Shown here in pieces: positions 1 to 36,418 of a DNA stretch of 64,000 nucleotides (positions are counted from its first letter, which is position 1; each line of letters opens with the position of its first letter). The notes under the pieces were generated by a model that was not told the DNA's origin, searched no databases, and saw only the letters and a list, made by a program, of their open reading frames with translations. The stretch is from positions 1-64,000 of the forward strand of contig JBLNDL010000057.1 of assembly GCA_050261575.1 (NCBI GenBank), written 5' to 3'. A program made the position numbers and the translations under genes. The stretch comes from Sphingomonadaceae bacterium (GTDB lineage: Bacteria; Chloroflexota; UBA6077).

Positions 1-83
1 CACCTCCCGAGGCCCACAGTCTACCCGGAAGATGGCCACTTGTCCTCTCCCGCCACCCAGGCCCATCCCTTCCCATTCACCCA

Positions 84-6970: not shown

Positions 6971-8884
6971 CTACCGCTCGGAGAGGTACTTCCGGTACAA
7001 CTCGGGGTGTTCGGAGACGACCTCCGCGTAGGCCTGAGCGTGGCTGAGCTTCCCAGCGCTGTCCTCGGCCCTCTTCCGGGCCATGGCTTCCAGTTGGGCC
7101 TCCGCGGAACTGGGCGCTGGCCCGCTGGTCCCGTGGACCTTGAAGGTTTCGGAGGTGGCGATCCTCTCGGCCTCGGCCCGCTTGTCCTCGATGTACTGCC
7201 TGACCTCCTCGCTGTCCTCGCCGAAAGCGGTCGCAAGCTTCATGAGGAAGCCGACGTGCTTGGCGGGGTCGCCGACGAACCTTCGGGTCCCCTCCTGCCG
7301 GCCGAGGACGATATCCTCGAAGCGCTTGCGGCGGGCCTCGGTCTCCATTGCAGCGATCCGCTCGGCGGCCTTCTTGGCTTCGGTCTCGGCGGCCTCCCTG
7401 GCCGAGGTCTCGGCCGCGAGCTTGCTCTCGAGCTCGGAAAACCGGCGAGCGACCTCCTCGCTCATCTGGAGAGGGGTATCCTGAGTCGTGTCCTTGTCTC
7501 CCATGTCCTCTACTCCTTCCCGTGTATTGGCGGGTGTTAGCGGCGTGAGATCGGCCGAGCCGGGCTCGGCCATCAGGAGGGAGCCCTCCGAGGCCTGGGC
7601 GATCGACCGGAGAGCCTTGTCCTTGAAGAACGGGCGGGTGACCAGGGCGGCCCCGATCAGGACGTCCTTATAGACGGTCCCGTCGACGGGGTCAGTCCAG
7701 GAGTCGAACCACTCGGGGGAGACGTAGCGGAAGCGGTCCTCCTCGAGCATCGTCTTCCCCCGCTCGGTCCACTCGACCCTGCCGTCTGCGGACCCGTCTT
7801 CGTTGAGACGCATCTCCCGGATCCAGCCGAGGGCGCCCGAGACCTTGGTCTCGTGCTCGGCGTCGATCGGGACCCCTTCCTGCTGGTAGATCCCCTTGTT
7901 GAGGTTGTCGACGAACCGCTCGTTGCGCTTGCGGGTGATCTTCACCTCCCCGTACACCGGGTGCTTGTACGTCCCCGGCTTGGGCAGGATCGGCAACCAC
8001 TCGGGGGCCTCGACGAAGGAGCGGACCTCCAGGAACAGACGGGCGCCAGCGCCGTCGGCGCATAGGTCGGCGATCTCGCCCGAGCATACGGACCTGTCCT
8101 TGTCCATGGGCATCTCCTTGTCGTTGGCTGCCCGGTCGCCCTCGGCTTTGGCCTTGGCATCCCGGATTCGCTCCGCCCGGGCGAGACCGCCCGCGTGGGC
8201 TCTCGCCTTCCGGACCGCCTCCTGGTAGTCCTCCTCGGAGAGGTCGCCGTCCTTGATCGCGGCCTTGATGAGCTCCTTGAGCTTCGACAGGAACGCGGCC
8301 GACGGGTAGCCCGCGGCCTCGGAGGCGCGAACGTAGGCGATCCGGACCTCCACCGGATCCCCCAGGATCGCCCGAGCGGGGTCGCTGGTCTGGTCGATGG
8401 TGTAGGTCCGAGACCAGAGGGCCCCCTTCCAGTGATAGATGACGACCTCATCGCCGAGATCCTGGATCCAGGGGTATTCGTAGGTGGCGGCGGACTCGAT
8501 GGGCTTGTGGATCTCCTCGATCGCCTGGGCGACGAGGCGCCGGCGTTCCTCGTGGGTGAGCCCGAGGACCACGACCTCGGCGCCCGCCTTCCTCTCCCGG
8601 ATCGACTCGGGCATCTCGTCAGGATCGGCGTCCGGGTGGGTCTGCCGCCAGAGGGTCCGGAGCTTCCTCCTGACAGAGGGGAGATCATCGTCAGGGATCT
8701 CGACCTTGTTCCCGCGGTAGTTGGTGAGGGCCGCGATCGCCCGCCCGACCTGCGCCGCGGTGATCCGTTTCTCTCCGTCGACGTACTCGGCGATCCGCAG
8801 TTTCCAGTGAGAGGGGACGTCGTCGGGCGTGTAGGCGTAGTCCCCTTTCTTGTAGGTCTTGCCGTCCTCGGTCCTCGTGGGCAT
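6971..8884 (-). CDS. Mu I-like prohead protease/scaffold with long N-terminal extension
   Basis: PIDAEH..GALGWI..VEWTERG..FRYVSPEW..GAALVTRPFF protease motifs; coiled-coil C-terminus. Confidence 0.85.
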   Translation of the reverse strand: MPTRTEDGKTYKKGDYAYTPDDVPSHWKLRIAEYVDGEKRITAAQVGRAIAALTNYRGNKVEIPDDDLPSVRRKLRTLWRQTHPDADPDEMPESIRERKAGAEVVVLGLTHEERRRLVAQAIEEIHKPIESAATYEYPWIQDLGDEVVIYHWKGALWSRTYTIDQTSDPARAILGDPVEVRIAYVRASEAAGYPSAAFLSKLKELIKAAIKDGDLSEEDYQEAVRKARAHAGGLARAERIRDAKAKAEGDRAANDKEMPMDKDRSVCSGEIADLCADGAGARLFLEVRSFVEAPEWLPILPKPGTYKHPVYGEVKITRKRNERFVDNLNKGIYQQEGVPIDAEHETKVSGALGWIREMRLNEDGSADGRVEWTERGKTMLEEDRFRYVSPEWFDSWTDPVDGTVYKDVLIGAALVTRPFFKDKALRSIAQASEGSLLMAEPGSADLTPLTPANTREGVEDMGDKDTTQDTPLQMSEEVARRFSELESKLAAETSAREAAETEAKKAAERIAAMETEARRKRFEDIVLGRQEGTRRFVGDPAKHVGFLMKLATAFGEDSEEVRQYIEDKRAEAERIATSETFKVHGTSGPAPSSAEAQLEAMARKRAEDSAGKLSHAQAYAEVVSEHPELYRKYLSER

Positions 8885-8906
8885 CGAGCGCCTCCCTGGG
8901 CAAAGT

Positions 8907-8938
8907 AAAAAGGGCGGGCCAATAAGGTCCCGCCCTCT
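8907..8938 (-). terminator. Intrinsic-terminator-like hairpin just upstream of the protease gene
   Basis: Minus strand AGGGCGGG-loop-CCCGCCCT followed by TTT. Confidence 0.5.
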
Positions 8939-9049
8939 CGTGCTAGTCTCCGGCGGCGAGTGCTATTCAGCTAGCAAGATTCTACGTGGAGGCTGGAGGC
9001 TGACACAATTCGGATGTGTCAGATTGTTCATACCCGACGAGCTACACTG

Positions 9050-9250
9050 CTATGAGTTCTCGCCCCGCGGCCCCGCGGGGATTGCCGACTTGCTCTCGGT
9101 CCTGAATGATACATCCTTGGGCCTTCCGCCGGCGCGGGTCAGGTACACGATCACGCTGATCGACGTCAGGGTCGGGTCCCGGTCGATCGCCTCCCTCCTG
9201 ATCTCGATCTCCCTGGTGATGCCAGCGAGGATCTCGTCAGTGCGCGACAT
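9050..9250 (-). CDS. Small hypothetical phage protein
   Basis: RBS GAGGAG; 66 aa with plausible alpha/beta composition. Confidence 0.65.
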   Translation of the reverse strand: MSRTDEILAGITREIEIRREAIDRDPTLTSISVIVYLTRAGGRPKDVSFRTESKSAIPAGPRGENS

Positions 9251-9293
9251 TCAATCTCCTCGGCACTCGGATTATGTTAGTTAGCTGTGGGTA

Positions 9294-9322
9294 TTGCACC
9301 GTGGTCCGATAGGTGCTAGACT
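9294..9322 (+). promoter_or_regulatory. Sigma70-type promoter TTGCAC-17-TAGACT with extended -10 TG
   Basis: -35 at 9294-9299, TG at 9314-9315, -10 at 9317-9322; points at a structured non-coding segment. Confidence 0.7.
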
Positions 9323-9328
9323 GATTAC

Positions 9329-9434
9329 GGTCCTGGGGTGAGAAGTCGCCTCTCACGCCGGGCAAAAGCCCGCTAGAGACCCGGATGCGGCGCACCGGCT
9401 ACGGGACCCGAAACCTGCCTACTGGGCAGGTTTT
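9329..9434 (+). ncRNA. Putative structured small RNA (closing stem plus three hairpins, then terminator)
   Basis: GGTCCTG/CGGGACC closing stem; GTGAGA/TCTCAC, CGGGC/GCCCG and CCGG/CCGG arms; flanked by promoter and terminator. Confidence 0.7.
9411..9434 (+). terminator. Intrinsic terminator, possibly bidirectional, overlapping the stop codon of the convergent gene
   Basis: AAACCTGCCT-ACT-GGGCAGGTTTT. Confidence 0.75.
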
Positions 9435-10552
9435 GTCGTTCCCAACTCCTTCCATTCCCGTCTCACCTGTCCCTTTTGGTAGAACTCCCGCTCCCCAGAG
9501 AGGTAGACGGTGATAATCCGATGCTCCTTACTGCACTTCTGCCCCGGTAGGCCGGCGAGACTCAGAGCAACGACCACATAGTGTTTGGGGTCTTCCGGAT
9601 CCCTCACGGCCAGCGTTTGTCTCCAGTGCCCGCTCCTTGCCAAGTCCAGGTGTCTGCGCCCGAGCTCAGGGGACTCGATTGCTCTGCGGATCAGGTGAGG
9701 CTTCTCCGCAAGCAACTTCGCACGGAGAGGGCCGTCCTTTGGGTTGTTGACGATATGAGCGACCCTCTCCTTGGTTACCATGACGCGGAGAGGCCGCAGA
9801 TGATCCCGTCCTGGCTCCCCATCGGGATACCATCCCTTTAGGTCTGGCATCTGGCCGACCTTCTGTTTTCCCGACTGCCCAACCGTGATGGACTCGACCG
9901 GCGCGCGTCGCTTGCCATGGCCCTTCTGATCGTGCTTGCCCGGGAGATGAAAGACTTTGCCTAGCGTGGTCTCGAGGAATTGTGGGTTCTGGTCAGCGTC
10001 AGGCTTCATCCCATCCATGCGTCGGCGCGTCTCCTCGAACCGGCGTCGGTAAGTCTCGAGCCGGGCCTTGAGCTCGGCTGTGTCCGACCGGACGCTAGTC
10101 GACCGCTCCCCGATGATAAAGGCCTCGGCCTCCTCAAGGTCAGACAGGAGTTCGTCGAAGAGAGCGGCCAGAGAGCCGTCACTCGCCTTCGTGGGTGCAT
10201 CCCTGTGGGGTAAAGGTTTTCCCTCCAGGATCGCTCCCTCTACCCGGTAGAGCTCCTCGAGGTCGGCGTACTGTACGGCCTCCGGCGATGTCCGGCGGAC
10301 GAAGTACTGGTCCCCCTCGTCGCGGCCGAAGTACTCCCATATGGCGCGGGGGGAGTGGCCTCTGCCAGTCGCCCAAGAGATCCGCTCGTTGTATTCGGCC
10401 GCGGCGGCCTCGCATCCCTCTACCGGCCTGAGCAGGATGGCCCCCCGGCCAGCGCCCCCGTCGCGATCCCAAACCCACAGGATTGCCGGCCGGAAGGCCC
10501 CAAGGTCGCGATCCAGCCGCTCCTCTCGCATGACCTCATAGCGCACAGGCAA
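9419..10552 (-). CDS. Mosaic protein with HLPGKHDQKGHG motif and C-terminal PBECR/RelE-like nuclease domain
   Basis: VTKERVAHI..IRRAIESPE..VVVALS..RIITVY resembles phage BECR-fold RNases. Confidence 0.55.
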   Translation of the reverse strand: MPVRYEVMREERLDRDLGAFRPAILWVWDRDGGAGRGAILLRPVEGCEAAAAEYNERISWATGRGHSPRAIWEYFGRDEGDQYFVRRTSPEAVQYADLEELYRVEGAILEGKPLPHRDAPTKASDGSLAALFDELLSDLEEAEAFIIGERSTSVRSDTAELKARLETYRRRFEETRRRMDGMKPDADQNPQFLETTLGKVFHLPGKHDQKGHGKRRAPVESITVGQSGKQKVGQMPDLKGWYPDGEPGRDHLRPLRVMVTKERVAHIVNNPKDGPLRAKLLAEKPHLIRRAIESPELGRRHLDLARSGHWRQTLAVRDPEDPKHYVVVALSLAGLPGQKCSKEHRIITVYLSGEREFYQKGQVRREWKELGTTKPAQ

Positions 10553-10904
10553 TCCCTCCCTCTGGCAGGTTGTGGGCGACCTCCGGATGAGATCGGATCC
10601 ACTCGGCGAAGGCCGCCAGGATCTCAGTCTGTCGAGGTTCCCAGGCGGGCTCTACCAGGACGTAGCCGACGCCGGGCACGTCGACGCGGACCTGGCCGTC
10701 GTCCAGGACCACCATGGCGACCCGATCGTGCATGTGGATCCGCTCCTCTGGCCCGGCCCACAGGAACTCCAGCCGGCCTCGAGCCTCGTCGACCTTGATC
10801 CACCAAAGGGGCCAGGGCCCGAGGGATCTCCGTCCCTCCATGACAACCGACAAGACGGCGCCGGCTTTGACCGTGCGCTCGAGTTGCTTCGTTGCCTCGC
10901 TCAT
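10536..10904 (-). CDS. Hypothetical protein, candidate immunity protein for MuF toxin domain
   Basis: 122 aa, ATGA-coupled to the MuF stop codon. Confidence 0.6.
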   Translation of the reverse strand: MSEATKQLERTVKAGAVLSVVMEGRRSLGPWPLWWIKVDEARGRLEFLWAGPEERIHMHDRVAMVVLDDGQVRVDVPGVGYVLVEPAWEPRQTEILAAFAEWIRSHPEVAHNLPEGGIACAL

Positions 10905-13900
10905 CGGACGACGTCCTCCACCTGTCTGCCGTTGATCTCGGTGATGCCATGCTGCCTAAACAGATCCAGGATCTCCCGGCGGCGGCCGCCGGAGTTGATC
11001 CGGATCAGATTGTCCACCAGGGAGACGCCATTCTTGATGATCGCCTCGTTGGCCCCATGGCGCGAGGCGTTCTTCCATGCCGCGATCGTGACGTTCCGCC
11101 TCGTCTTGGTGGCGGGGTCGGAGCGGCCGTACATATCGCCGTCGTAGGATATCAGGTCCGTCCGGAGGAGCAGCCGCTGATCGAAGACCAGGTGGTAGCT
11201 GTCCCAGGCCCGCTTCGGCATGATTCGGGTGAAGAAGTAGCTGGCTCCGCCGGTCCTCATGTCGGGCTCGGGGCTCATCCCCTGGCCGGTGTACACCCCG
11301 GTTCGGATTCGCTCCTCAGTGTTGAGGGCCCAGCCGTTACCCTCCAGGACGTCCCGCAGGAACGTGTAGGTGTCGCGGCTCCAGAGGTGGTGGGCGAGGG
11401 CGTAGTCTGCCATCTCGGTCTCGAAGGTCGACCGGTCGATGTCGAACCGCTCCCAGTAGGGCCGGCCGGCTGGACCCGTTGCCGTCGCCCCGCTTGCCGG
11501 GTTCCAACCGCGGTCGAACTTGGGCTCGGGGTTGTAGCCCGGGAGATCCTCGAGTTTGTCAGCCTTCTTGAGCTTGAGCTTCTTCTTGAGGGCCTCCTTG
11601 AGGACGGTCAACTTGCCTGCGACCGTCGGCTCGGCCTCGGCCGCGGCGATCGCCGAGTTCCAGGCGGCATCCCCCTCCAGCTTCATGGCATGGGCTTGCT
11701 TGTGGAGGTAGACGAGCTCAAGGTCTGCCCGGGTGGCCAGCTTGGCCTCGACTCCCAGGCGCTTGAACTGGTCCAGGGTGTCGGCGATCTCCCGGGCCGT
11801 CCCCTGGTAACCCTCCCTGTAGATGGTAAGCCTGCCCATCTTGGAGTAGGTGTTGGCGTCCCCGTGCTGGATGTAAATCCCCGTCATGCCGCCCCCGAGA
11901 TCGAGGGTGTAGCCGGTCTCTCCGGAGAGGATCTCCTTGGCAGCGCTGGCGACGATCTCCCCGTTCTGGAGGGTGCGCTTGTACTGCCAGGGCCGCTCGC
12001 GGCTCGCGTGGATCTTGTCCGGCGCGATCGGCGCCGGCTTGACTGGGATCTGGTACTGTTCGGCGAAGAGGTTGGGATCGTAGGCCGCCTTGAGCCAGGA
12101 CTCGACCTGCGCGACCGAGGCGGTCGCAACGTCCAGGACCGTCTTCCCGGTCATCTTCTCGATCAGGGCCGAGTAGTGGCCGAGCATGTCCTCGACGTCC
12201 TGGGGGGCCGAGGGGGAACTCGTCTTGACGATCTTCTCCGCGGCCTTCTGGATGCCTGCGACCTTGTCTGCCTTGAGAACGTCGTCCTTGCCCGGCGAGC
12301 CGGGCTTCAGGTGGTAATGGACGTGCTTGATCGTCGTCAGGACGTCGCCCCAGAGGTTGTCGGCGGGATGGGTCCGCGGCCCCGCGGCCGACGGCGTCCC
12401 GATCGCCTGGAGGATCCTCCCCTCGGCGGCCTCCCGCACCTTGGCCTCCAGGACCAGGGTTATCTTCGTCCCCTGTCGGATCTCGTAGGCCAGGACGTGG
12501 GCGTCCTCGAAGTCGGGGCCGCCGACCATGATGGACCTGCCGGCCCATCCCTGCTCGGTTACCTGGCGAGCGAAGTCGTCGTCGAGCCTGGTGTAGGCGC
12601 CCACGGGGGTCTGCTGGCCGAGCCTGCGCGCCCGCGCTGCGTCCGCCCTCTTGTAGAGGTCGTCGAAGTCGGAGACGATGGTACGTTTGCGCTGGACCAG
12701 GCGGTCCAGGAGCTCGTCGACGGTGCGGTAGTATCCCTTGCGGACCCCGTACTCGGCGTACGGGCGGAACGCATCCCTGAGGACCCGATCATCCAGGTCG
12801 ACGACCCGCTTGAGGATGGGGGCGATCGCCGATCGATCGAGGGTGATCCGGCCAGCGATGTGGGCCTCGAACATGCGGTTGTAGACTACGGGGAGAGGAT
12901 TCGGGTTGTAGGTCCAATCGAGCGTATCGGACCCAATCCACTTGACCGCTTGCCCCTTGTCGACGGCGTAGATCCGGCCGGCCTTGCTTATCAGGAAGGC
13001 CCCCTCGTTGGAGTCGTGTTGGCCGACGAGCCAGTCAAGGACCTGGTGGGTCTGAATGTCCTCGAGTTGCTGTCTGGTCAGCGTGTGGAGACCGTCGGCC
13101 TTGAGAGGGGCGTCGACATCGTTGAACATCCTCTGGATCGTGCCCGTCTTTCCCCCAATCGTGACCAAGTACACCTCGGGGGCGGGAAGGCCGAGCTCGG
13201 CCATGATCTTGTAGGTCGCCCGCTCGGCGAGGCCGGCGACCTCATCGGGCTTGAACAGCCACTTGGCCCCTTCCTTGTCCCGGTAGACATGCTTCTCGTG
13301 GATCCCCCCGAGGCTCATGGCAATCTCGGTCAGGTCCTGTATCCACTCGGGCGACCCAGGGAGAGCCTTCGGCGGGAGTGGCGGGGTTTCCTGCTTTGGC
13401 AGGGACGGCGCCGTCGGATTGACGAGGCCCTGTCCACACCGGCAATTGTGAGTGATTATCCCTTCAGCGATGTACCATCCTGATGCTGTCTGGAGGTTGT
13501 AGACGTGACCGCGAAACGGAACGATATCGACAGCGACTATGTCGTCGGCCAGTACCTGGCCGGCAGGGGAGCTCCTAGCATCGCCAAGGAACTCGGCGTA
13601 AGCGAGACCGTCATCCGCCGGATACTTCGGGAGGGCAACGTTCAGCCTCGTCCGATCGGCAACCCCCGGTTGGACATCGATCTGACCGAGTTGAGTCGCT
13701 TGTACCTCGACGGCATCTCGGAGAAGGCGCTGGCCGAGCGCTTCGGTGTTGACCGGAGTGGTATCCGCCGACGCTTGCTTGCTCTTGGGATTGAGCCTCG
13801 CGGGCAGTCCGATGCCGAGTCTGTTAAGTGGGCGAGAATGAGCCCCGACGAGCGGTCGCGCCAGGTTGCCGCCGCCCACGCAGCTACGCGTGGCAAGCCC

Positions 13901-15379
13901 AAGTCGCTCGAAGCCAAGATGGCTCATGCCCAAACCGTCCAGTCTCGAGCTCTCCACATCTCCCCAACGGAATACCTGCTCGCCGCTCTTCTTCGGGAAC
14001 GTGGCGTCGACGTCGTTCATCAGCAGGCCATCGGTCCATACAACTGCGACCTGGGAGCCTTTCCCGTCGCCGTGGAAGTCTTCGGTGGCCACTGGCACTG
14101 GCATGGCCGACACATGCTCCGCACACCCGAACGCATGCGCTATATCCTCGATGGGGGCTGGCATCTCCTGATCGTCGCCGTCCATTCCTGGCGTCCCCTC
14201 GTGCCTGAGACGGCAGACTACATAGTCGCCTTTCTTAAGGAGGCACGCTGCGACCCAGCCAGACGGCGTGAGTATCGGGTGATTCGGGGTGCAGGAGAGC
14301 GTCTTGCCTCCGGATGTGCTGATGACGATGAGATCTCCCTCGTACCAGCGCTTGCTCGCGGCCGCGATTCCCTTGGCCGTTACGCGAGCATCCCCAGGTA
14401 GACATTGCGGGTGGAGAGGCGGGTTGGCGACCTCATATCCCCCCGGCGCTTTGAACGGCTTGTCGACCGGGACCTCCTGTCCCTTCATCTGCTTGCAGGT
14501 GGGGCAGAGGCGATCGTCAGGGGTGACTATCCATCGCCTCATGGTCTTCGACCGGTCGAGGTATCCCTGATCGGCGGCGAGCTGCCACATGGCTGCCTGG
14601 CCGGCGTTGCTGGCCGCGATCGTCTCCGTCCGAGCGATGGCCCTCGCGCGGTATCGTCGGAGGCGCAGGGCATAGTTGGCGAACAGCCTGTCGATCTTCT
14701 CGTCTGTGAGGGACTTGTCCCCCTTGGTCTGCCTCTTCTTCAGCCCGTTGTAGTAGTTGTCCGCGGCGGCAGCGAGGGTGTTCGTGAGAGGGACCAGTGG
14801 AAGGATCTTCCGCGCCAGGGCCGCTGGCCCGTAGCCCTCCTGGAACTCCTCCACCAGTAGGGCACGGATCTGGGCCTTGGAGGCCTCAGAGATGTCGTCC
14901 TTGATGAGCTTGGTCGACTCGGTCTCGGCCCACTCGAGGGCCATCGGGTTCAGCAGGTCGAAGTACCCCTTGATCTTGGGACCGAGCATGCTCATGACGG
15001 CGATGTATGGGTCGGACTCCGCCGCCCGCTTCGCCTCCGGAGGGAGGAGGTCGAGGCCCTGGCCGGCGACGTGGGCGCCCCCCAGGTAGCCGGCCCGTAG
15101 GACGTCGACCATGCGGAGGAATCGACTCTCGAGGGTCGCGTAGGGGATCGCCCCGAGGGCGGCGTCGACGTCCCGCGCTCTGATCGCCCGCACCAGGGCC
15201 CGTTCGTCCACATCGGCGAGGGCGTCCTCGAAGGAGCTGAGGATCACCCGCTCGAGGATTGGGGCGACCAGGTCGGCGACGCCGTGAATCCGCCTCCACT
15301 CGGCATCGGCCGTCGTCTCGGCAAACAGGCGCCTTGCCCGTAGAGAGGGGAGCGGAGGGCGGGTCGTCACGACTAGCAT
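10901..15379 (-). CDS. MuF (SPP1 gp7-like) minor head protein with intein, HipA/PI3K-like kinase domain and putative ART-like C-terminus
   Basis: RARAIARTET, W..TPDDRLCPTC, PPLHPQ|CRC MuF motifs; WLFKP..DWLVGQHD..IYAVDKG kinase motifs; RBS GGAGG before MLVVTT. Confidence 0.88.
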   Translation of the reverse strand: MLVVTTRPPLPSLRARRLFAETTADAEWRRIHGVADLVAPILERVILSSFEDALADVDERALVRAIRARDVDAALGAIPYATLESRFLRMVDVLRAGYLGGAHVAGQGLDLLPPEAKRAAESDPYIAVMSMLGPKIKGYFDLLNPMALEWAETESTKLIKDDISEASKAQIRALLVEEFQEGYGPAALARKILPLVPLTNTLAAAADNYYNGLKKRQTKGDKSLTDEKIDRLFANYALRLRRYRARAIARTETIAASNAGQAAMWQLAADQGYLDRSKTMRRWIVTPDDRLCPTCKQMKGQEVPVDKPFKAPGGYEVANPPLHPQCLPGDARVTAKGIAAASKRWYEGDLIVISTSGGKTLSCTPNHPILTPSGWVAACLLKKGDYVVCRLRHEGTPGMDGDDQEMPAPIEDIAHAFGCAEHVSAMPVPVATEDFHGDGKGSQVAVVWTDGLLMNDVDATFPKKSGEQVFRWGDVESSRLDGLGMSHLGFERLGLATRSCVGGGNLARPLVGAHSRPLNRLGIGLPARLNPKSKQASADTTPVNTEALGQRLLRDAVEVQATQLGQIDVQPGVADRTRLNVALPKYPADDGLAYAEFLGDARSSPAGQVLADDIVAVDIVPFRGHVYNLQTASGWYIAEGIITHNCRCGQGLVNPTAPSLPKQETPPLPPKALPGSPEWIQDLTEIAMSLGGIHEKHVYRDKEGAKWLFKPDEVAGLAERATYKIMAELGLPAPEVYLVTIGGKTGTIQRMFNDVDAPLKADGLHTLTRQQLEDIQTHQVLDWLVGQHDSNEGAFLISKAGRIYAVDKGQAVKWIGSDTLDWTYNPNPLPVVYNRMFEAHIAGRITLDRSAIAPILKRVVDLDDRVLRDAFRPYAEYGVRKGYYRTVDELLDRLVQRKRTIVSDFDDLYKRADAARARRLGQQTPVGAYTRLDDDFARQVTEQGWAGRSIMVGGPDFEDAHVLAYEIRQGTKITLVLEAKVREAAEGRILQAIGTPSAAGPRTHPADNLWGDVLTTIKHVHYHLKPGSPGKDDVLKADKVAGIQKAAEKIVKTSSPSAPQDVEDMLGHYSALIEKMTGKTVLDVATASVAQVESWLKAAYDPNLFAEQYQIPVKPAPIAPDKIHASRERPWQYKRTLQNGEIVASAAKEILSGETGYTLDLGGGMTGIYIQHGDANTYSKMGRLTIYREGYQGTAREIADTLDQFKRLGVEAKLATRADLELVYLHKQAHAMKLEGDAAWNSAIAAAEAEPTVAGKLTVLKEALKKKLKLKKADKLEDLPGYNPEPKFDRGWNPASGATATGPAGRPYWERFDIDRSTFETEMADYALAHHLWSRDTYTFLRDVLEGNGWALNTEERIRTGVYTGQGMSPEPDMRTGGASYFFTRIMPKRAWDSYHLVFDQRLLLRTDLISYDGDMYGRSDPATKTRRNVTIAAWKNASRHGANEAIIKNGVSLVDNLIRINSGGRRREILDLFRQHGITEINGRQVEDVVR
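13445..14404 (-). mobile_element. Intein, 320 aa, inserted in the MuF HPQ|CRC motif
   Basis: Block A CLPGDARV, block B CTPNHPILT, block F HVYNLQT, block G IITHN followed by Cys+1. Confidence 0.95.
13505..14401 (+). CDS. Antisense-encoded putative homing endonuclease (two HTH domains plus Vsr/DUF559-like PD-(D/E)xK domain) nested inside the intein
   Basis: GGAGG 8 nt before GTG; IAKELGVSETVIRRIL and LAERFGVDRSGIRRRL HTHs; SPTE..QQAIGPYNCD..AVEVFGGHWH..GW motif. Confidence 0.88.
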   Translation: MTAKRNDIDSDYVVGQYLAGRGAPSIAKELGVSETVIRRILREGNVQPRPIGNPRLDIDLTELSRLYLDGISEKALAERFGVDRSGIRRRLLALGIEPRGQSDAESVKWARMSPDERSRQVAAAHAATRGKPKSLEAKMAHAQTVQSRALHISPTEYLLAALLRERGVDVVHQQAIGPYNCDLGAFPVAVEVFGGHWHWHGRHMLRTPERMRYILDGGWHLLIVAVHSWRPLVPETADYIVAFLKEARCDPARRREYRVIRGAGERLASGCADDDEISLVPALARGRDSLGRYASIPR

Positions 15380-15492
15380 ACGGGCGCCCTCCGCTCGATG
15401 TAGTAGTGCCAGTCGCCGACGTTGGCGTAGAGGACCGTCGGGTCGGCGGAACGGTCCCATCCCCTCCAACTCACGAATCCCAGGACTGTCAT
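15373..15492 (-). CDS. 39-aa ORF coupling the portal and MuF genes
   Basis: ATG overlaps portal stop (ATGA); stop overlaps MuF start. Confidence 0.4.
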   Translation of the reverse strand: MTVLGFVSWRGWDRSADPTVLYANVGDWHYYIERRAPVC

Positions 15493-16832
15493 TCCTCGAC
15501 CTCGTCCTGGGGTAGTGTCAGCGCGGGTTTCCTCGGGCGGGCGGCACCCGAATCCTCCATGCCCAACCCTCCCTCCGGGACCGGCAGCCCGACCTTCCGG
15601 TAGATATGCTCGAAGACCTCCGGCGTGAGGGGCCCGCCGGCGGCCGCGAGGTTCTGGAGGAACTCTCCCCATACCTTCGGGTCGACGGTCTCGACGTCGC
15701 CATGGTGGAGGTACGGCGGGGCAACAGCCCATCTCATCCCGTTCAGTCGCAGTAGGGTCTTGATATGGGGGTTGACGATGGCGCCGATCCCGTCCATCCA
15801 AGCGCCGAGCGCGAAGCCGAACATCGCGGTCTTGTCGCTCGAGAGGGCGTAGGATCCCCTCCCTTCGTGTCCAAGGAGCACGAAGTCCGCGAGGAGAGCA
15901 GCGGCCATCCTCGTCTCCTTGCGGCGGATTATCCGGTCAGTGTCGAACTGACGCTGGCCCCCGGTCGAAAGGAGTTCGATCCGATACAGTGCCTTGCCGC
16001 TCTCCTGGTCGACGTCGCCCGGCATGACCAGTCCCTCTTGCTCATCCCGGCGGATGCTGGTCACCAGCTTCTGACAGTGGTCCAGGATGGCCTTCTCGTC
16101 GTCCGTGGCGTCAGGAGCTAGGAGTTCCGACGGCACGTAGATGACGGGCAGACCCGCGAGGTCGCGCTCGGCGCCGATCCCCTCGATTGTCTCCAGGTGC
16201 CGGATGAAGTACCAATCGCGGTAGCAGGACCGGAGAGCCGAGATCCCCTCAGGGTTATTCTTGCGGCTCGTCGTGCGAAACAGCATGCACTTCGAGAGGG
16301 GAACCTCTCGGCGCATGAAGTCGGGCTCGGCCTGCTGAATGAAGCCGATGGCGTGGCCCTCCTGGTCGAAGATCCACTCCTGGATTGACTCCTGAGCTCG
16401 GATCGACCAGTCCCGCCAGCCGATCAGGCCGTCGTCATAGGCCGAGTGGCGGGTCGGGTCGCCGGGGTTATCCCCGTGGCGCCACTTGTACAGTACCTCC
16501 AGCGGGGCGAAGCCGTAGATAAGCTCGGTCAGGATCTCCGAGAGCTCCTCCTTGAACGGCGTTTCCATGTCGTCGAGGCATGTTTGGACGAACTCGGCCT
16601 GGTCGACGTCGGTCTCGTGGTCCGAGCCCGGCTGGATCGACCATTCGGCTGCCCGGATCATCATCTCGATGGCGAACAGGATCCCTCCGAGCAAGGAGCT
16701 CTGTTCCGACATCTCCCGGTAGACCTGGCGACCCCGGACGCCGCGGAGCTCGGGGAGGTACTCCTCGTGGACGTAGCCACCGGACCGTTTAAGTCCGGTA
16801 GTCCCTATCGCCTGCAGGTTGATTCGAGCCAT
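15489..16832 (-). CDS. Portal protein (DUF935/Mu gp29-like)
   Basis: NNPEGISALRSCY..W..IGAERDLAGLP, GSYALS motifs; follows terminase. Confidence 0.9.
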   Translation of the reverse strand: MARINLQAIGTTGLKRSGGYVHEEYLPELRGVRGRQVYREMSEQSSLLGGILFAIEMMIRAAEWSIQPGSDHETDVDQAEFVQTCLDDMETPFKEELSEILTELIYGFAPLEVLYKWRHGDNPGDPTRHSAYDDGLIGWRDWSIRAQESIQEWIFDQEGHAIGFIQQAEPDFMRREVPLSKCMLFRTTSRKNNPEGISALRSCYRDWYFIRHLETIEGIGAERDLAGLPVIYVPSELLAPDATDDEKAILDHCQKLVTSIRRDEQEGLVMPGDVDQESGKALYRIELLSTGGQRQFDTDRIIRRKETRMAAALLADFVLLGHEGRGSYALSSDKTAMFGFALGAWMDGIGAIVNPHIKTLLRLNGMRWAVAPPYLHHGDVETVDPKVWGEFLQNLAAAGGPLTPEVFEHIYRKVGLPVPEGGLGMEDSGAARPRKPALTLPQDEVEE

Positions 16833-16901: not shown

Positions 16902-18572
16902 TCATAGTGGGCGCCTCCAGATGCTCACCTTCGGCAGCGCAACTGGCGCCCTTGCCCTGCGCCGGCGAGTCCGACTGTGGGTGAGCTCCCGCCAGGACCA
17001 GAAGCTCGCGTCGGCCAGGTCAAGGGGCTTCGTCTTGGGAAACCGCTTGAGCGCGGCCTCGATGATGGCGTGGGTCGACCCGACCCTCCTGATGACGTGG
17101 ACGATCCGGCCGAGCTGGTAGTCCGCGAGCTGCTGGTTCTGCCGGTGGACCTTGGGGCCCTCGCCGCCGGCTTTCCGTGAGACCATAGTCGGGGGGCGTC
17201 TCCTGCCGTGGAACTCGAGGATCTCCTTGGTGTCGGGATCGCCCAGGAGGTCGCGCCAGGCCCCCTCGTAGGTGTCCTTCCAAGTGTCCCCGCCCTGGTC
17301 CGTCTCCACGACAACCTTCGATCCCCTGAACTCAGCCGCCTTGAGCAGGGCAAGCCCGATCGCCTCCCGCGGGCTCGCTCGCTCCTCCCACGAGAACAGG
17401 CGGTACACGGTGTACTCGTCGCCCGGGCCCCAACGGATCCCATCGACGTTGACCCCATGACAGTCGGACTCGTCGGTATCCGAGACGGCAGGGTCAACGG
17501 CCACGACGACCTCGTCGAGGTCGGGGAGGTCCTCCTCGCGGATGTGGCGGAACTCGATGTCGTCGTAGAGACCACCAGGGGGTGCAGCGACCTCCTGTTG
17601 AGACTCCGCTTTGAAGGCGGCTAGGCCGATCGTGTTGATGAGGCCCTCGCAGGCCTCTAGGTCCTGACCCTCCCAGGTGGGCGTGCCGGCGACGACGACC
17701 CAGATCCGGCGGCCCTCGAACTCGCGGGTCTCGTAGGCAGCGCCCTCCAGAGCCACGTAGGGGCCGGAAACGATCCGGTCCTGGAGGAAATCGGCTCGGC
17801 CGTCGACCAGTCGGGAGGCGATCGAGTCGGGATGGATCAGGTTCTGGACGAACAGGACTACCAGATCGTTTGACCCTGCGGGGAGGATCTTGGTCGTGAG
17901 GTCCCGGGTCTTCTTGGCCGTCGTCTTGGGGGAGTCGGAGCCGTCGTCGATATCGTCGACGATGATGAGGTCGGGCCGGACGTCCTCGAGCTTGATACCT
18001 CGAGCTGCGGTGTCCAGGCCGAGGGCGTCGACGGTGTAGCCGGCCGCAGTGCGGAGGCGGTTTCTCCTCCACCCCTTGCTGTTGCCAAACTTGGAGAGCA
18101 GCCTGCTGGCCATCAGGGGGTAGACCCGGCCGAAGGCCGCGGACTCAAGCATGGAGCCCATGTTGCCAACGTGGTCGTCGGCCTTGTCCTGGATCCCCGA
18201 GACATAAAGACAGTAGCGACGGCTGCGGCGAGCCCCCATGGCGACGGCGGCGAGCTCGGCCGTCGTCGACTTGCCTCCGCCCCTCGGCCATATCGCGACG
18301 AAGGGTCGGGAGCGCACTCCCAGCTTGACTGACCAGGCCCAATTCCAGAGCTCACGATGGCGCTCGGCGAAGGGGATTGGCTCGTCAGTGTCCTTGCGGG
18401 AGACGTAGCGGCGAAAGAGGGTTCTGAGCCAGACCTCCCAATCGGCCTCGAGGCGATCCCGATCGAGTTCGGTGAGACTCTCGACGTCCTCGAGCCGATG
18501 GGGCCGGGCGGCCAGGCGGGTCTCCACCGCGGCGAGGCCGGCCATGAGATCGATCGGGGCGATGGCCGGCAT
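16902..18572 (-). CDS. Terminase large subunit
   Basis: Walker A PRGGGKST, Walker B IIVDD, nuclease VAVDPA..DLADA. Confidence 0.92.
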   Translation of the reverse strand: MPAIAPIDLMAGLAAVETRLAARPHRLEDVESLTELDRDRLEADWEVWLRTLFRRYVSRKDTDEPIPFAERHRELWNWAWSVKLGVRSRPFVAIWPRGGGKSTTAELAAVAMGARRSRRYCLYVSGIQDKADDHVGNMGSMLESAAFGRVYPLMASRLLSKFGNSKGWRRNRLRTAAGYTVDALGLDTAARGIKLEDVRPDLIIVDDIDDGSDSPKTTAKKTRDLTTKILPAGSNDLVVLFVQNLIHPDSIASRLVDGRADFLQDRIVSGPYVALEGAAYETREFEGRRIWVVVAGTPTWEGQDLEACEGLINTIGLAAFKAESQQEVAAPPGGLYDDIEFRHIREEDLPDLDEVVVAVDPAVSDTDESDCHGVNVDGIRWGPGDEYTVYRLFSWEERASPREAIGLALLKAAEFRGSKVVVETDQGGDTWKDTYEGAWRDLLGDPDTKEILEFHGRRRPPTMVSRKAGGEGPKVHRQNQQLADYQLGRIVHVIRRVGSTHAIIEAALKRFPKTKPLDLADASFWSWRELTHSRTRRRRARAPVALPKVSIWRRPL

Positions 18573-18573
18573 C

Positions 18574-19305
18574 CTAGGCCCTCCTCCGGAAGGGAACGAT
18601 CTTCTCCGTCTCCCCCTGGACGTAGGCCCGGGCGATCTCCTCGGCCTGGGCGAGTACTTCGTCTTCGGCGATCCCGTAGGCCTCGGCGATCCGCCTCGCC
18701 TCCGCGCGGACCATGGCGATATCGATCTTGGTCCGATCGGTCTCCATCTCCGCGGCGAGCCGGCGCATCCGTTGCGCGAGTTCGAGCATCTTGACCGCGG
18801 TGCCGAAGTTCCACCGGCCAGGCTCGACGATGGTGGTGACGATCGTCTTCCCGTCCCTCTCAACCGTCATGCTCTTGACGGCGGCCAGGGGGAACTCGAG
18901 CATCTCCCTGGCCTTGGCGATCAGCTTCTCCGCATACTCGACCTCTTCCCTCGGGATCCGTTTCCTGACCTCGGACCAGTAGGCGGCCTCCTCCCTCTGG
19001 ATCCGCTCGATCTCCTCCCGCTTGAGCTTGTCCAGGTAGGCGTCGAATGCCTCGGCCCTGGCGACCCAGGTGTACTCGGATGCCCAGTAGTGCCATCGCC
19101 GAATGCACTTGGCCCGCTCGCCAATCCCCTCCCGGTGGAGACAGGTCCTCAGGTGGTTCGCATAGGCGCGATCATAGGACCGCTCGGAAGGCGGGAGGTC
19201 TCGGTAGTGGCAGAAGGCGTCATAGGCCTGCCTGGATTCACCCTTCACATAGGGCGTCCGGGAACCGCGGATCCGCTCCCAGACCTGCGGCGTCTCGTCG
19301 CTCAC
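18574..19305 (-). CDS. Terminase small subunit (putative)
   Basis: GESRQAYDAFCHYRDL..W..RAEAFD pattern; GTGA-coupled start; directly upstream of TerL. Confidence 0.75.
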   Translation of the reverse strand: MSDETPQVWERIRGSRTPYVKGESRQAYDAFCHYRDLPPSERSYDRAYANHLRTCLHREGIGERAKCIRRWHYWASEYTWVARAEAFDAYLDKLKREEIERIQREEAAYWSEVRKRIPREEVEYAEKLIAKAREMLEFPLAAVKSMTVERDGKTIVTTIVEPGRWNFGTAVKMLELAQRMRRLAAEMETDRTKIDIAMVRAEARRIAEAYGIAEDEVLAQAEEIARAYVQGETEKIVPFRRRA

Positions 19306-35030: not shown

Positions 35031-36179
35031 ATGGCGAGAGCCAACGGTGAGGGCACCGTCTACCAACGCAAGAGCGACGACAAGATCGTCGTGGCCATCA
35101 GCTTGCCCGGAGGCGGGAGGAAGGTCTTCTACTCAGACGAGAACGGTCTCCCCTTCAAGACTAAAGCCGCGGGGAAGGCATTCCTCAAAAAGGAGCTAGA
35201 GAAGCTGAGCCAGGGCCTTCCCCTCGGCCCAGGGGAGGAACTGGGAAGCTACCTCCTCAATTGGATGGAGACTGTCGCGAGACCGCGCCTGGATCCGAAG
35301 ACCGCCAAAGACTACGCCGCGATCATCCGCCTCCACATTCTGCCGAAACTCGGGAGCTGCCCCATCAACAAGCTGAGCGGCCCTCTGCTGGCCGAACTCT
35401 ATACTGAGAAGCTGAAGGCGTTGTCTCCACGGCGCGTGCAGTACATCCACGCTGTCATTCATACAGCGATGGAGCAGGCGGTCAAGTGGCGATTCATCCC
35501 CCGCAACCCGGCCGATGACGTCGAGGCTCCGAAGGTCACAAAAAGGGACCCGCATATTCTGTCCGTCCACCAGGTCCGGCAACTCCTGGCCGCCGTCCAG
35601 GGGGATCGTCTCGAAGCCCTCTACGTTCTGGCCGTGACGACAGCCATGCGTCAGGGCGAACTGCTGGGTCTCCACTGGGACGAGGTCGACCTGGCCCGCG
35701 GAATGATCCACGTCGTCCACAGCCTCGATCGGCTTGAGAGACAATGGAGGGTCAAGGACCCCAAGACCAAGTTGAGTCGGCGATCCATCAGGCTCACCCA
35801 GTGGGCGGTGCGAGCCCTGCAGGATCACTGGCAGCGCCAGCAGTGGGAGACGGAGCTCGCCGGCGAGCTCTGGCAAGGCAGGAACCTGGTGTTCTGCCGA
35901 GAAAACGGTCTCCCCTTGGACAACAAGAGGGTCACCGAGCGGCACTTTTACCGTTTGCTGAGAAAGCTTAACCTGCCCCCGATGCACTTCCACGATCTCA
36001 GACACACCGCCGCGAGCCTCTACATGCTGATGGGCGTCCCCCCGAAGGTCGTCCAGGAGATGCTCGGCCACAGCACAGTCGTCATGACCCTGGATACCTA
36101 CAGCCACCTCCTACCTGAGATGCAGGAAGAGGCCGTGAGGAAGATGGACAATCTCCTCGGCCCCGGCACCAACGGATAA
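35031..36179 (+). CDS. int: Tyrosine recombinase (phage integrase)
   Basis: RANGEGTVYQR arm-binding domain; MRQGE, HDLRH, LGH..T..TY catalytic residues. Confidence 0.96.
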   Translation: MARANGEGTVYQRKSDDKIVVAISLPGGGRKVFYSDENGLPFKTKAAGKAFLKKELEKLSQGLPLGPGEELGSYLLNWMETVARPRLDPKTAKDYAAIIRLHILPKLGSCPINKLSGPLLAELYTEKLKALSPRRVQYIHAVIHTAMEQAVKWRFIPRNPADDVEAPKVTKRDPHILSVHQVRQLLAAVQGDRLEALYVLAVTTAMRQGELLGLHWDEVDLARGMIHVVHSLDRLERQWRVKDPKTKLSRRSIRLTQWAVRALQDHWQRQQWETELAGELWQGRNLVFCRENGLPLDNKRVTERHFYRLLRKLNLPPMHFHDLRHTAASLYMLMGVPPKVVQEMLGHSTVVMTLDTYSHLLPEMQEEAVRKMDNLLGPGTNG

Positions 36180-36216: not shown

Positions 36217-36276
36217 GCGTTGCTACACGCGTTGCTACATACGACGAGCGGGGCGGCCAGTTGGCCGCCCCGCTCG
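36217..36276. repeat. att-region repeats: GCGTTGCTACA x2 and a 15-bp perfect inverted repeat
   Basis: Direct repeats at 36217 and 36229; cgagcggggcggcca-gt-tggccgccccgctcg at 36245-36276. Confidence 0.7.
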
Positions 36277-36334
36277 CTGTCAAGAATGGCGCTTAGAGTA
36301 TAATACTGAGCACCATTGCTCAAGATACTGAGGG

Positions 36335-36418
36335 TGCCGGGGAGGGGACTCGAACCCCTACTCCCTTGCGGGAAGCAGATTTTAAGTCTGCCGCGTCTGC
36401 CGGTTTCGCCACCCCGGC
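36335..36418 (-). tRNA. tRNA-Leu(UAA), CCA not encoded
   Basis: GCCGGGG/CCCCGGC acceptor stem, GCAGA-CTTAAAA-TCTGC anticodon arm, long variable arm, GGTTCGAGTCC T arm. Confidence 0.97.

Follow-up and report, generated by a model that had tools for sequence, protein, structure and literature searches.

A 168-base gap between two minus-strand late genes of a prophage probably encodes an independent, non-coding RNA of ~110 nucleotides (nt; 9329 to ~9438), read from the plus strand against the late operon. The prophage occupies bases 1 to ~36,400 of the window, by which we mean the whole 64-kb stretch of DNA analyzed here (G+C 64.6%). The window is the start of contig C57 of a Chloroflexota assembly of 3.72 Mb in 103 contigs, with a completeness by marker genes of 100%. 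We consider the RNA likely because its promoter belongs to a class that recurs in the genome, no plus-strand open reading frame (ORF) lies behind it and the terminator has its better U-tract on the plus strand. An earlier note on this DNA had described a structured, non-coding stretch with its own promoter and terminator running against the late operon, and both the promoter class and the polarity of the terminator bear this out. We further propose, more tentatively and without rating it as probable, that the RNA is a cis-antisense RNA of the lambda OOP type, acting on the 3' end of the convergent gene for a 377-aa nuclease-like protein. The unit has the following parts:

9251-9418: gap of 168 bases between two minus-strand late genes, with the candidate RNA
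9294-9299, plus strand: -35 element TTGCAC, of the TTGnnn form found at the tRNA promoters of this genome
9314-9322, plus strand: extended -10 element TGcTAGACT (TG at 9314-9315, TAGACT at 9317-9322), after a 17-nt spacer from the -35 element
9329-9408, plus strand: structured core, a 7-pair closing stem around three hairpins (a four-way junction) by its fold, with no ORF bearing a ribosome-binding site (RBS)
9411-9440, plus strand: intrinsic terminator by its hairpin and T-tract score, arms 9411-9419 and 9425-9433 (9/9 complementary)

The match of the promoter to the textbook consensus is weak (3/6 for TTGCAC and 4/6 for TAGACT, plus the TG), and the site at 9294-9322 was absent from the lists of two generic promoter scans. 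We therefore calibrated the promoter on the genome itself. The best sites upstream of each of the 51 tRNA genes called by ARAGORN were examined, and many of them consisted of TTGnnn, a spacer of 16-18 nt (mostly 17), often a TGn, and TATAAT, TAGAAT or TATACT as the -10 element. The pattern TTGnnn-16..18-TGnTA[T/G]A[A/C]T, which was generalized after the candidate had been seen, was found at 42 sites on the two strands of the genome, compared to 2, 3, and 4 in three composition-preserving block shuffles. By crude gene calls based on ORFs and the G+C content of third codon positions (GC3), which also underlie the genome-wide terminator statistics below, long ORFs of high GC3 contain 10 of the 42 sites, and the other 32 fall in the 15% of the DNA that such ORFs leave free. 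Twelve are upstream of tRNA genes. A comparison of 20 further sites with Rfam placed one before a 5S rRNA and two tRNAs and one before a SAM riboswitch, so that 14 of the 42 precede a tRNA, 5S or riboswitch.

The promoter TTGCAC-17-(TG)TAGACT that had been proposed for the RNA was found letter for letter at 9294-9322 and is one of these 42 sites, the only one in the window. The next plus-strand ORF beyond it is 11,322 bases away. With a position matrix built from the other 31 non-coding sites, the candidate ranked 27 among ~7.4 million positions. TTGCAC is also the -35 element of the tRNA-Asp promoter (contig C65, position 16761). The TAGACT variant of the pattern occurs at seven sites in the genome, five of them non-coding, which is well above what would be expected if a quarter of the 2-4 chance sites for the whole pattern were of this kind. 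The best minus-strand promoter-like site of the gap, and the best before the 66-aa gene on its other side, is GTGCAA-17-CATAAT, which has its -35 position in common with the plus-strand promoter. This site ranked only 2514, and the AT-rich part of the gap is therefore best explained by the plus-strand promoter. Since the -10 element ends at 9322, transcription should start at ~9329-9330, right where the closing stem begins.

Some sites of the promoter class have neither an ORF start within 200-3600 nt nor an Rfam family behind them, e.g., C60:28309, C103:5802, C6:134, C78:6288, C33:63192, and C49:11170 (contig:position). These orphan sites may mark further unannotated RNAs. The promoter grammar TTGnnn-17-TGnTA[T/G]A[A/C]T, marking 42 strong promoters, may prove more useful than the RNA.

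The terminator was said to overlap the stop codon of the nuclease gene, and the TAG of the minus-strand 377-aa ORF (9421-9419) indeed lies inside the hairpin, which is also a terminator, though a weaker one, for the nuclease gene. When counting starts from the G+C core of the stem, the tail reads TTTTGTCGTT on the plus strand and TTTCGGGTCC on the minus strand. With a decaying T-tract score, i.e., one of the d'Aubenton-Carafa type, the plus strand obtained 3.67 and the minus strand 2.53. Genome-wide, 24 hairpins with a perfect stem follow a single gene end and score at least 3 on one side; 16 favor the strand of the gene and 8 the other. Among clearly polarized gene-end hairpins, 13 favor the strand of the gene and 4 the opposite one, and a U-tract that points the "wrong" way at a gene end is therefore unusual. 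The hairpin at 9411-9433 is a better terminator for the plus-strand RNA than for the nuclease gene; the evidence for this is moderate, not decisive.

The closing stem GGTCCTG (9329-9335)/CGGGACC (9402-9408) has seven pairs, one of them G-U, and the three hairpins (9338-9356, which is exact, 9359-9372, and 9381-9398) have the letters that had been read there. The pseudoknot suggested between two loops fared less well. The loop CGCC (9347-9350) is complementary to GGCG (9389-9392), but a match of four bases would be trivial in DNA of 65% G+C. The 80-nt core folds with -38.8 kcal/mol on the plus strand (z -2.50; 3 of 200 shuffles equally good) and with -36.2 kcal/mol on the reverse strand (z -1.48). 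When the terminator is included, the 112 nt have -58.0 kcal/mol on the plus strand (z -5.14; 0 of 200 shuffles as good) and -51.7 kcal/mol on the minus strand (z -2.85). The minimum-energy fold makes up 17% of the ensemble and draws hairpin 1 otherwise than the earlier note. The core structure is plausible and the plus strand is favored, yet this is insufficient alone to carry the claim of an RNA.

We searched the gap (9251-9418) for a credible ORF on both strands and found none. The element is present in a single copy in its own genome, and 13- to 15-base words common to the RNA and the rest of the genome are near chance level; the element is therefore not a dispersed repeat, nor does it imitate a repeat from another part of the genome. 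One 13-mer of the locus recurs at two other places in the window without extended similarity. The hairpin GTGAGA-N7-TCTCAC was considered as a repeated operator and rejected, as no second good copy was found. An RNA duplex scan of the window was non-discriminating in DNA so rich in G+C.

The RNA is not a tRNA, in agreement with what had been noted from the lack of a T-loop and CCA. ARAGORN made no call at the locus at its default settings, at an 80% threshold or in the mitochondrial and transfer-messenger RNA modes; at a 60% threshold it made only two spurious calls, both elsewhere in the stretch. The Rfam tRNA model had no match at the locus at E up to 10, nor did any other Rfam family reach its threshold there. 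A cmscan of 8880-9460 with permissive filters and E up to 10 gave five weak matches, none over 9329-9408; they touched only the two terminator hairpins. The C4 antisense RNA family was among the candidates rejected in this way. A type I toxin-antitoxin system was also rejected, since the overlapped gene encodes a soluble multidomain protein of 377 aa and not a small hydrophobic toxin; only the antisense geometry is common to both. The likeness to a type III toxin-antitoxin arrangement, which the earlier note had suggested, did not hold up: the RNA follows the gene instead of preceding it and is encoded on the other strand, it has no direct repeats, and Tandem Repeats Finder (minimum score 30) reported no array in 9251-9440.

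Since the RNA is located like a moron and has a strong promoter and a terminator of its own, it could also be a trans-acting prophage small RNA, pairing its loops by short, imperfect matches with host or phage mRNAs as do P1/P7 C4, P4 CI, and DicF. A length of ~80 nt and a closing stem that starts with GGU are in line with this, C4 being described in PMC5320573 as ~77 nt with a stem from GGW. The longest complementarity of the RNA elsewhere in the window is 11 nt, which is chance level, and loop-target pairs of 6-8 nt are indistinguishable from chance. Complementary 10-mers outside the locus number 15 in the window compared to ~20 for shuffled RNA. Neither the window nor the genome contains a trans target that exceeds chance, the core matched neither C4 nor another small RNA family of Rfam, and Hfq was not found in the genome. 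We therefore regard a trans-acting RNA as rather unlikely.

A structured domain directly before a terminator, as in riboswitch leaders, might alternatively be a leader or attenuator. The 80-nt junction would then sense a signal and gate a long antisense transcript across the nuclease gene and the MuF polyvalent-toxin gene, and it is true that the 11 kb past the terminator contain nothing but antisense of late genes. Neither an alternative antiterminator pairing, sought by eye, nor a riboswitch match in Rfam was found for the core, and we give this explanation very little weight.

In the cis-antisense mechanism that we propose, the gap would be an independent, moron-type transcription unit on the plus strand between minus-strand late genes. 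A housekeeping-type promoter (9294-9322), of the class of tRNA and 5S genes, would start an RNA at ~9329, and this non-coding RNA of ~110 nt would fold into the closing stem and three hairpins and end at the terminator (9411 to ~9438). The promoter sequence needs no phage factor, and the RNA should therefore be made in the lysogen. It would be perfectly complementary to a late transcript that reaches or passes the weak minus-strand terminator, over the last five codons and the stop codon of the RNase-like gene and the spacer before the 66-aa gene. As the hairpin is predicted to terminate less well on the minus strand, part of the late transcripts should include this complement in full. Kissing contacts would form between the hairpin loops of the RNA and their mirror-image counterparts in the late transcript, and cleavage of the duplex by RNase III would deprive the nuclease mRNA of the 3' hairpin that protects it, as for lambda OOP and cII. 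Interference by convergent transcription could possibly be added to this. The net result would be that leaky nuclease expression and read-through into the head genes are damped in the dormant phage.

The genome contains a gene for RNase III, whereas Hfq was not found although the genome is 100% complete by markers, and a fully complementary antisense mode thus fits better than an Hfq-dependent trans mode. Together with the moron anatomy directed against the late operon, the full complementarity and the lack of a trans target, this is why we favor cis-antisense action.

None of the collections searched yielded a homologue of the RNA. For GenBank phages, blastn with the locus and tblastn with the nuclease domain were both empty. 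No match to the RNA or the locus was obtained among 60 relatives compared by DNA, and no relative of the RNA among 150 relatives and 71 loci searched with a single-sequence covariance model, a method of low power. IMG/VR had no relative of the locus by protein; of two exact DNA words, one had 0 matches there and the other 11, which are at chance (best model E 0.68). JGI metagenomes and GTDB genomes likewise had no relative of the RNA or locus. A search with the 66-aa homologue was also empty for 65 genomes of the class, and among 400 genomes of the phylum a profile of the nuclease domain had a single distant match, L004. Contigs of the phage from soil metagenomes show no variation over 8923-9476.

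The sole homologue of the 66-aa protein (P0067, 70 aa, 84% identical) is on a 160-kb NCBI contig, and the only close homologue of the 377-aa protein (P0005, 365 aa, 69% identical) is on a contig of 4.5 kb; P0006 is related to the N-terminal part of the 377-aa protein only. In these word-based searches of short contigs P0067 matched only the 66-aa query and P0005 only the 377-aa query, which is weak evidence that the two genes are not seen together outside this phage. A related capsid gene (33-55% identical) is present at 70 IMG/VR loci, none of which had the 377-, 122- or 66-aa gene or a stretch like the gap. It follows that the block is an insertion specific to this lineage of phages. As it has no detectable relatives, the RNA is not to be called a family; it is so far an orphan among phage-encoded small antisense/regulatory RNAs, which as such are a known kind.

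Several observations weigh against the RNA and its proposed action. The promoter pattern and the matrix derived from it are partly post hoc, and TAGACT itself is not among the tRNA promoters, though its six other sites in the genome are enriched. The fold energy places the core only among the best 4.2% (536 of 12,784) of 80-nt windows, which is not remarkable for this DNA, and homologues are lacking as described. The public runs that contain this DNA (11 runs from six studies, soil) are all DNA runs, with no RNA run among them. As to the mechanism, the RNA overlaps the nuclease ORF by just ~16-20 nt, it does not cover the RBS of the 66-aa gene, and a four-way junction exceeds the needs of a plain antisense RNA.

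Some of these points would equally suit a gap without any functional RNA, made up of the terminator of the nuclease gene and an AT-rich spacer, where the promoter and fold are fortuitous or give a meaningless short transcript. To the ordinary fold and the single copy without detectable relative can be added the weak classical consensus, the omission of the site by two generic scans and the 10 pattern sites inside long ORFs, so that not every such site need be a working promoter. Chance would have to account, however, for 42 pattern sites where 2-4 are expected and a genome rank of 27, for the better U-tract on the plus strand and for an expected transcript start that would coincide exactly with the start of the closing stem. 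We consider this unlikely.

The late head genes of the prophage are on the minus strand, and the surroundings of the RNA are as follows:

16902-18863, minus strand: large terminase, late head gene
15489-16832, minus strand: Mu-type portal, late head gene
10901-15469, minus strand: 1522-aa MuF protein with an intein and weak HipA-like kinase matches, late head gene
10536-10904, minus strand: 122-aa gene, late head gene
9419-10552, minus strand: 377-aa gene, convergent with the RNA, late head gene
9050-9250, minus strand: 66-aa gene with no family found, divergent from the RNA promoter (RBS GAGGAG, GC3 0.88)
8907-9008, minus strand: promoter-like TTGTGT-18-TAGAAT (9008-8979; rank 817), then a strong hairpin and TTTTT (8937-8907); 76 nt, z -3.53
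6971-8884, minus strand: head protease/scaffold (start 8884), late head gene

Beyond the head protease/scaffold gene the same late cluster continues with a scaffold/decoration protein and then the major capsid protein.

The neighboring gene had been called RelE/PBECR-like, which agrees with the fold and motifs of the C-terminal domain of its product. An exhaustive HMMER search with the 377-aa protein gave 62 relatives at E <= 0.001, which divide the protein into three parts. The N-terminal domain (~3-115) is also found as stand-alone proteins of ~100 aa. The linker carries the motif HLPGKHDQKGHGKR (residues ~199-229), of which the giant polyvalent proteins P0026, P0058, and P0061 have 3 to 8 copies; it may act as a module for processing, or as a spacer, between effector domains. 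The C-terminal domain (~230-370) occurs alone (140-200 aa) or as the C-terminus of MuF proteins, and 6 of 25 scanned homologues carry Phage_Mu_F with the nuclease-like domain at their C-terminus. The GC3 of the gene is 0.74 compared to 0.82-0.90 for the head genes. A 180-base contig of soil run X3 differs at 26 positions from the 9781-9954 part of the gene, so that the same habitat must also contain a diverged variant of it.

The alignment of the domain (26 sequences) keeps H42, R53, H120, and T124, with H42, H120, and T124 at least 90% conserved. The AlphaFold2 model of the domain has a predicted local distance difference test (pLDDT) value of 93.9 and places H42 in a helix (37-44). The BECR fold, defined by an N-terminal helix that precedes a sheet of four to five strands, is supported by the structural matches of this model. 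Among 48,161 chains the best structural match was the RelE-like toxin 7vd7_A (Z 6.2, 93 residues aligned), followed by BrnT (5.2), CdiA-CT tRNases (5.2, 5.1, and 4.8), colicin D (4.2), and RelE (4.0). The Z values are middling, but each of these matches covers most of the domain and the list is consistent. Foldseek alone found nothing at E <= 0.001 for the model, and a profile of the domain had only irrelevant matches (E >= 0.13) among PDB sequences. The Pfam PBECR models did not match this domain at E up to 1, while among the 26 family members one matched PBECR2 (2.1e-05), two PBECR3 (0.043), and one PBECR1 (0.1). Iyer et al. (2017; PMC5512222) give a His in the first helix and a C-terminal Thr as the signature of PBECR. 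The domain thus appears to be a divergent relative of PBECR and not a scored member, and it is predicted, at the level of fold and motif, to be an RNase-type (BECR/PBECR-like) catalytic domain.

The earlier note had seen in the RNA an antitoxin, tRNA-mimic decoy or other RNA partner of this nuclease, expressed in the lysogen. Such a partner could be a tRNA-shaped decoy, an inhibitor or a substrate mimic by which the enzyme would be kept harmless in the lysogen or during assembly. By the matches above, the adjoining gene does end in a BECR-fold domain, and the two His and the Thr that PBECR should have are conserved in it. Cleavage of tRNA is described for several BECR toxins by Iyer et al. (2017), and the four arms of the RNA include an acceptor-like stem of 7 pairs. 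A protein immunity partner was sought and none was identified. However, no second locus supports a co-occurrence of the two, as the 377-aa protein has only one close homologue; ARAGORN did not recognize the RNA as tRNA-like even at relaxed thresholds; its middle arm lacks a 7-nt loop of the anticodon type, T-loop motifs are absent, and the type III layout failed. The one distant relative of toxin-antitoxin type that we could read in DNA has a protein antitoxin: at L004 1462-2003 (G055:C298, another Chloroflexota genome) the small PBECR2/DUF4258-like gene and a DUF2283 gene that overlaps it form, by their sequence, a protein toxin-antitoxin pair, whose relation to the nuclease domain is distant. 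Finally, MuF-fused domains are thought, according to Iyer et al. (2017), to be packaged and injected effectors, for which an antitoxin is not a requirement. We consider an RNA partner very unlikely. If it were true, a constantly made RNA immunity factor would bind or decoy a packaged BECR/PBECR RNase and so protect the lysogen as well as the virion during its assembly. RelE/colicin-type RNases would then have their first RNA antitoxin, in a toxin-antitoxin layout that is new in being convergent and non-repetitive.

The MuF protein upstream of the 377-aa gene has an intein at residues ~362-675, a weak HipA-like kinase match next to it and then ~700 residues without a family. It is a virion protein of the polyvalent or polymorphic-toxin type, and the 122-aa gene that follows it may be an immunity gene for it.

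The 66-aa minus-strand ORF has a G+C content by codon position of 0.51/0.54/0.88, 72% purine at first positions and the RBS GAGGAG. It is a real gene, and an overlapping plus-strand ORF of 141 aa, which shares its third codon positions, is its shadow. No family was found for the 66-aa protein and the ESM Atlas gave no usable lead. The element at 8907-9008 bounds the block on its other side. Its hairpin and TTTTT lie ~35 nt past the promoter-like site and ~20 nt before the RBS of the head protease/scaffold gene, and it could be either a second tiny RNA or a promoter with a leader-terminator, like lambda PR'-tR', which would need antitermination for the head genes.

The distal end of the prophage is marked by the integrase gene (35031-36179, plus strand) adjoining tRNA-Leu (36333-36418, minus strand). 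Just past the integrase gene a perfect 14-pair G+C hairpin without a U-tract (36245-36274) is followed by the promoter-like CTGTCA-16-TATAAT (36277-36304, plus strand), which faces tRNA-Leu. The most stable 80-nt stretch of the entire window is the one at this site.

If transcribed, the RNA at 9329 to ~9438 would be a well-delimited phage small RNA from Chloroflexota, where phage regulatory RNAs have to our knowledge hardly been studied. Its location in a polyvalent-toxin (MuF) head module would offer a handle on how temperate phages silence packaged RNases.

The unit shares features with several known systems. With the type III systems (ToxIN, CptIN, and TenpIN) it has in common a non-coding RNA that adjoins an endoribonuclease-type gene with a terminator between them. 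The type III RNA is a tandem repeat array upstream of the toxin gene, on the same strand and processed by the toxin, whereas the present RNA is free of repeats and lies downstream of, and convergent with, the gene for an enzyme that is predicted to have the BECR fold and presumably not the ToxN fold. Like tRNAs and phage tRNA-like RNAs, the RNA has a 7-pair closing stem and three arms in ~80 nt as well as a promoter of the tRNA class; unlike in tRNA, the middle arm has a 4-nt loop, and a T-loop motif and CCA are missing. Phage morons are independent units of promoter, gene, and terminator inside late operons. The present unit resembles them in its autonomous promoter and terminator between late genes, in the lower GC3 of the 377-aa gene and in the absence of the block from related head modules, and differs from them in that its product would be an RNA instead of a protein and in its orientation against the operon.

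In size and shape the RNA recalls the C4 family (P1/P7 C4 and P4 CI), which we take to be Rfam RF01695. Its core is 80 nt with a closing stem that starts with GGU. C4 has three stem-loops and is cut from a longer leader by RNase P, while the present RNA has four helices and a promoter placed at the start of the stem; it also has no Rfam match at E up to 10 and no loop-complementary target that could be told from chance in the window. The internal hairpin loops of C4 pair with its targets, according to PMC5320573.

The closest working likeness, offered as an analogy, is lambda OOP. There is no sequence relation between the two, and the overlap with the ORF is only ~16-20 nt here. The target would be a gene of the late (virion) operon and not a regulator of lysis and lysogeny, and OOP is a simple hairpin RNA, whereas the present RNA, known from sequence alone, would form a four-way junction. 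The anatomy is nevertheless of the OOP type: its own constitutive promoter, an intrinsic terminator and a short non-coding RNA that overlaps the 3' end of a phage gene convergently. Judging by the titles of Krinke and Wulff (1987, 1990) as cited in PMC5869508, OOP acts through RNase III cleavage of the paired mRNA, and the RNA described here may act on the nuclease transcript in the same way.

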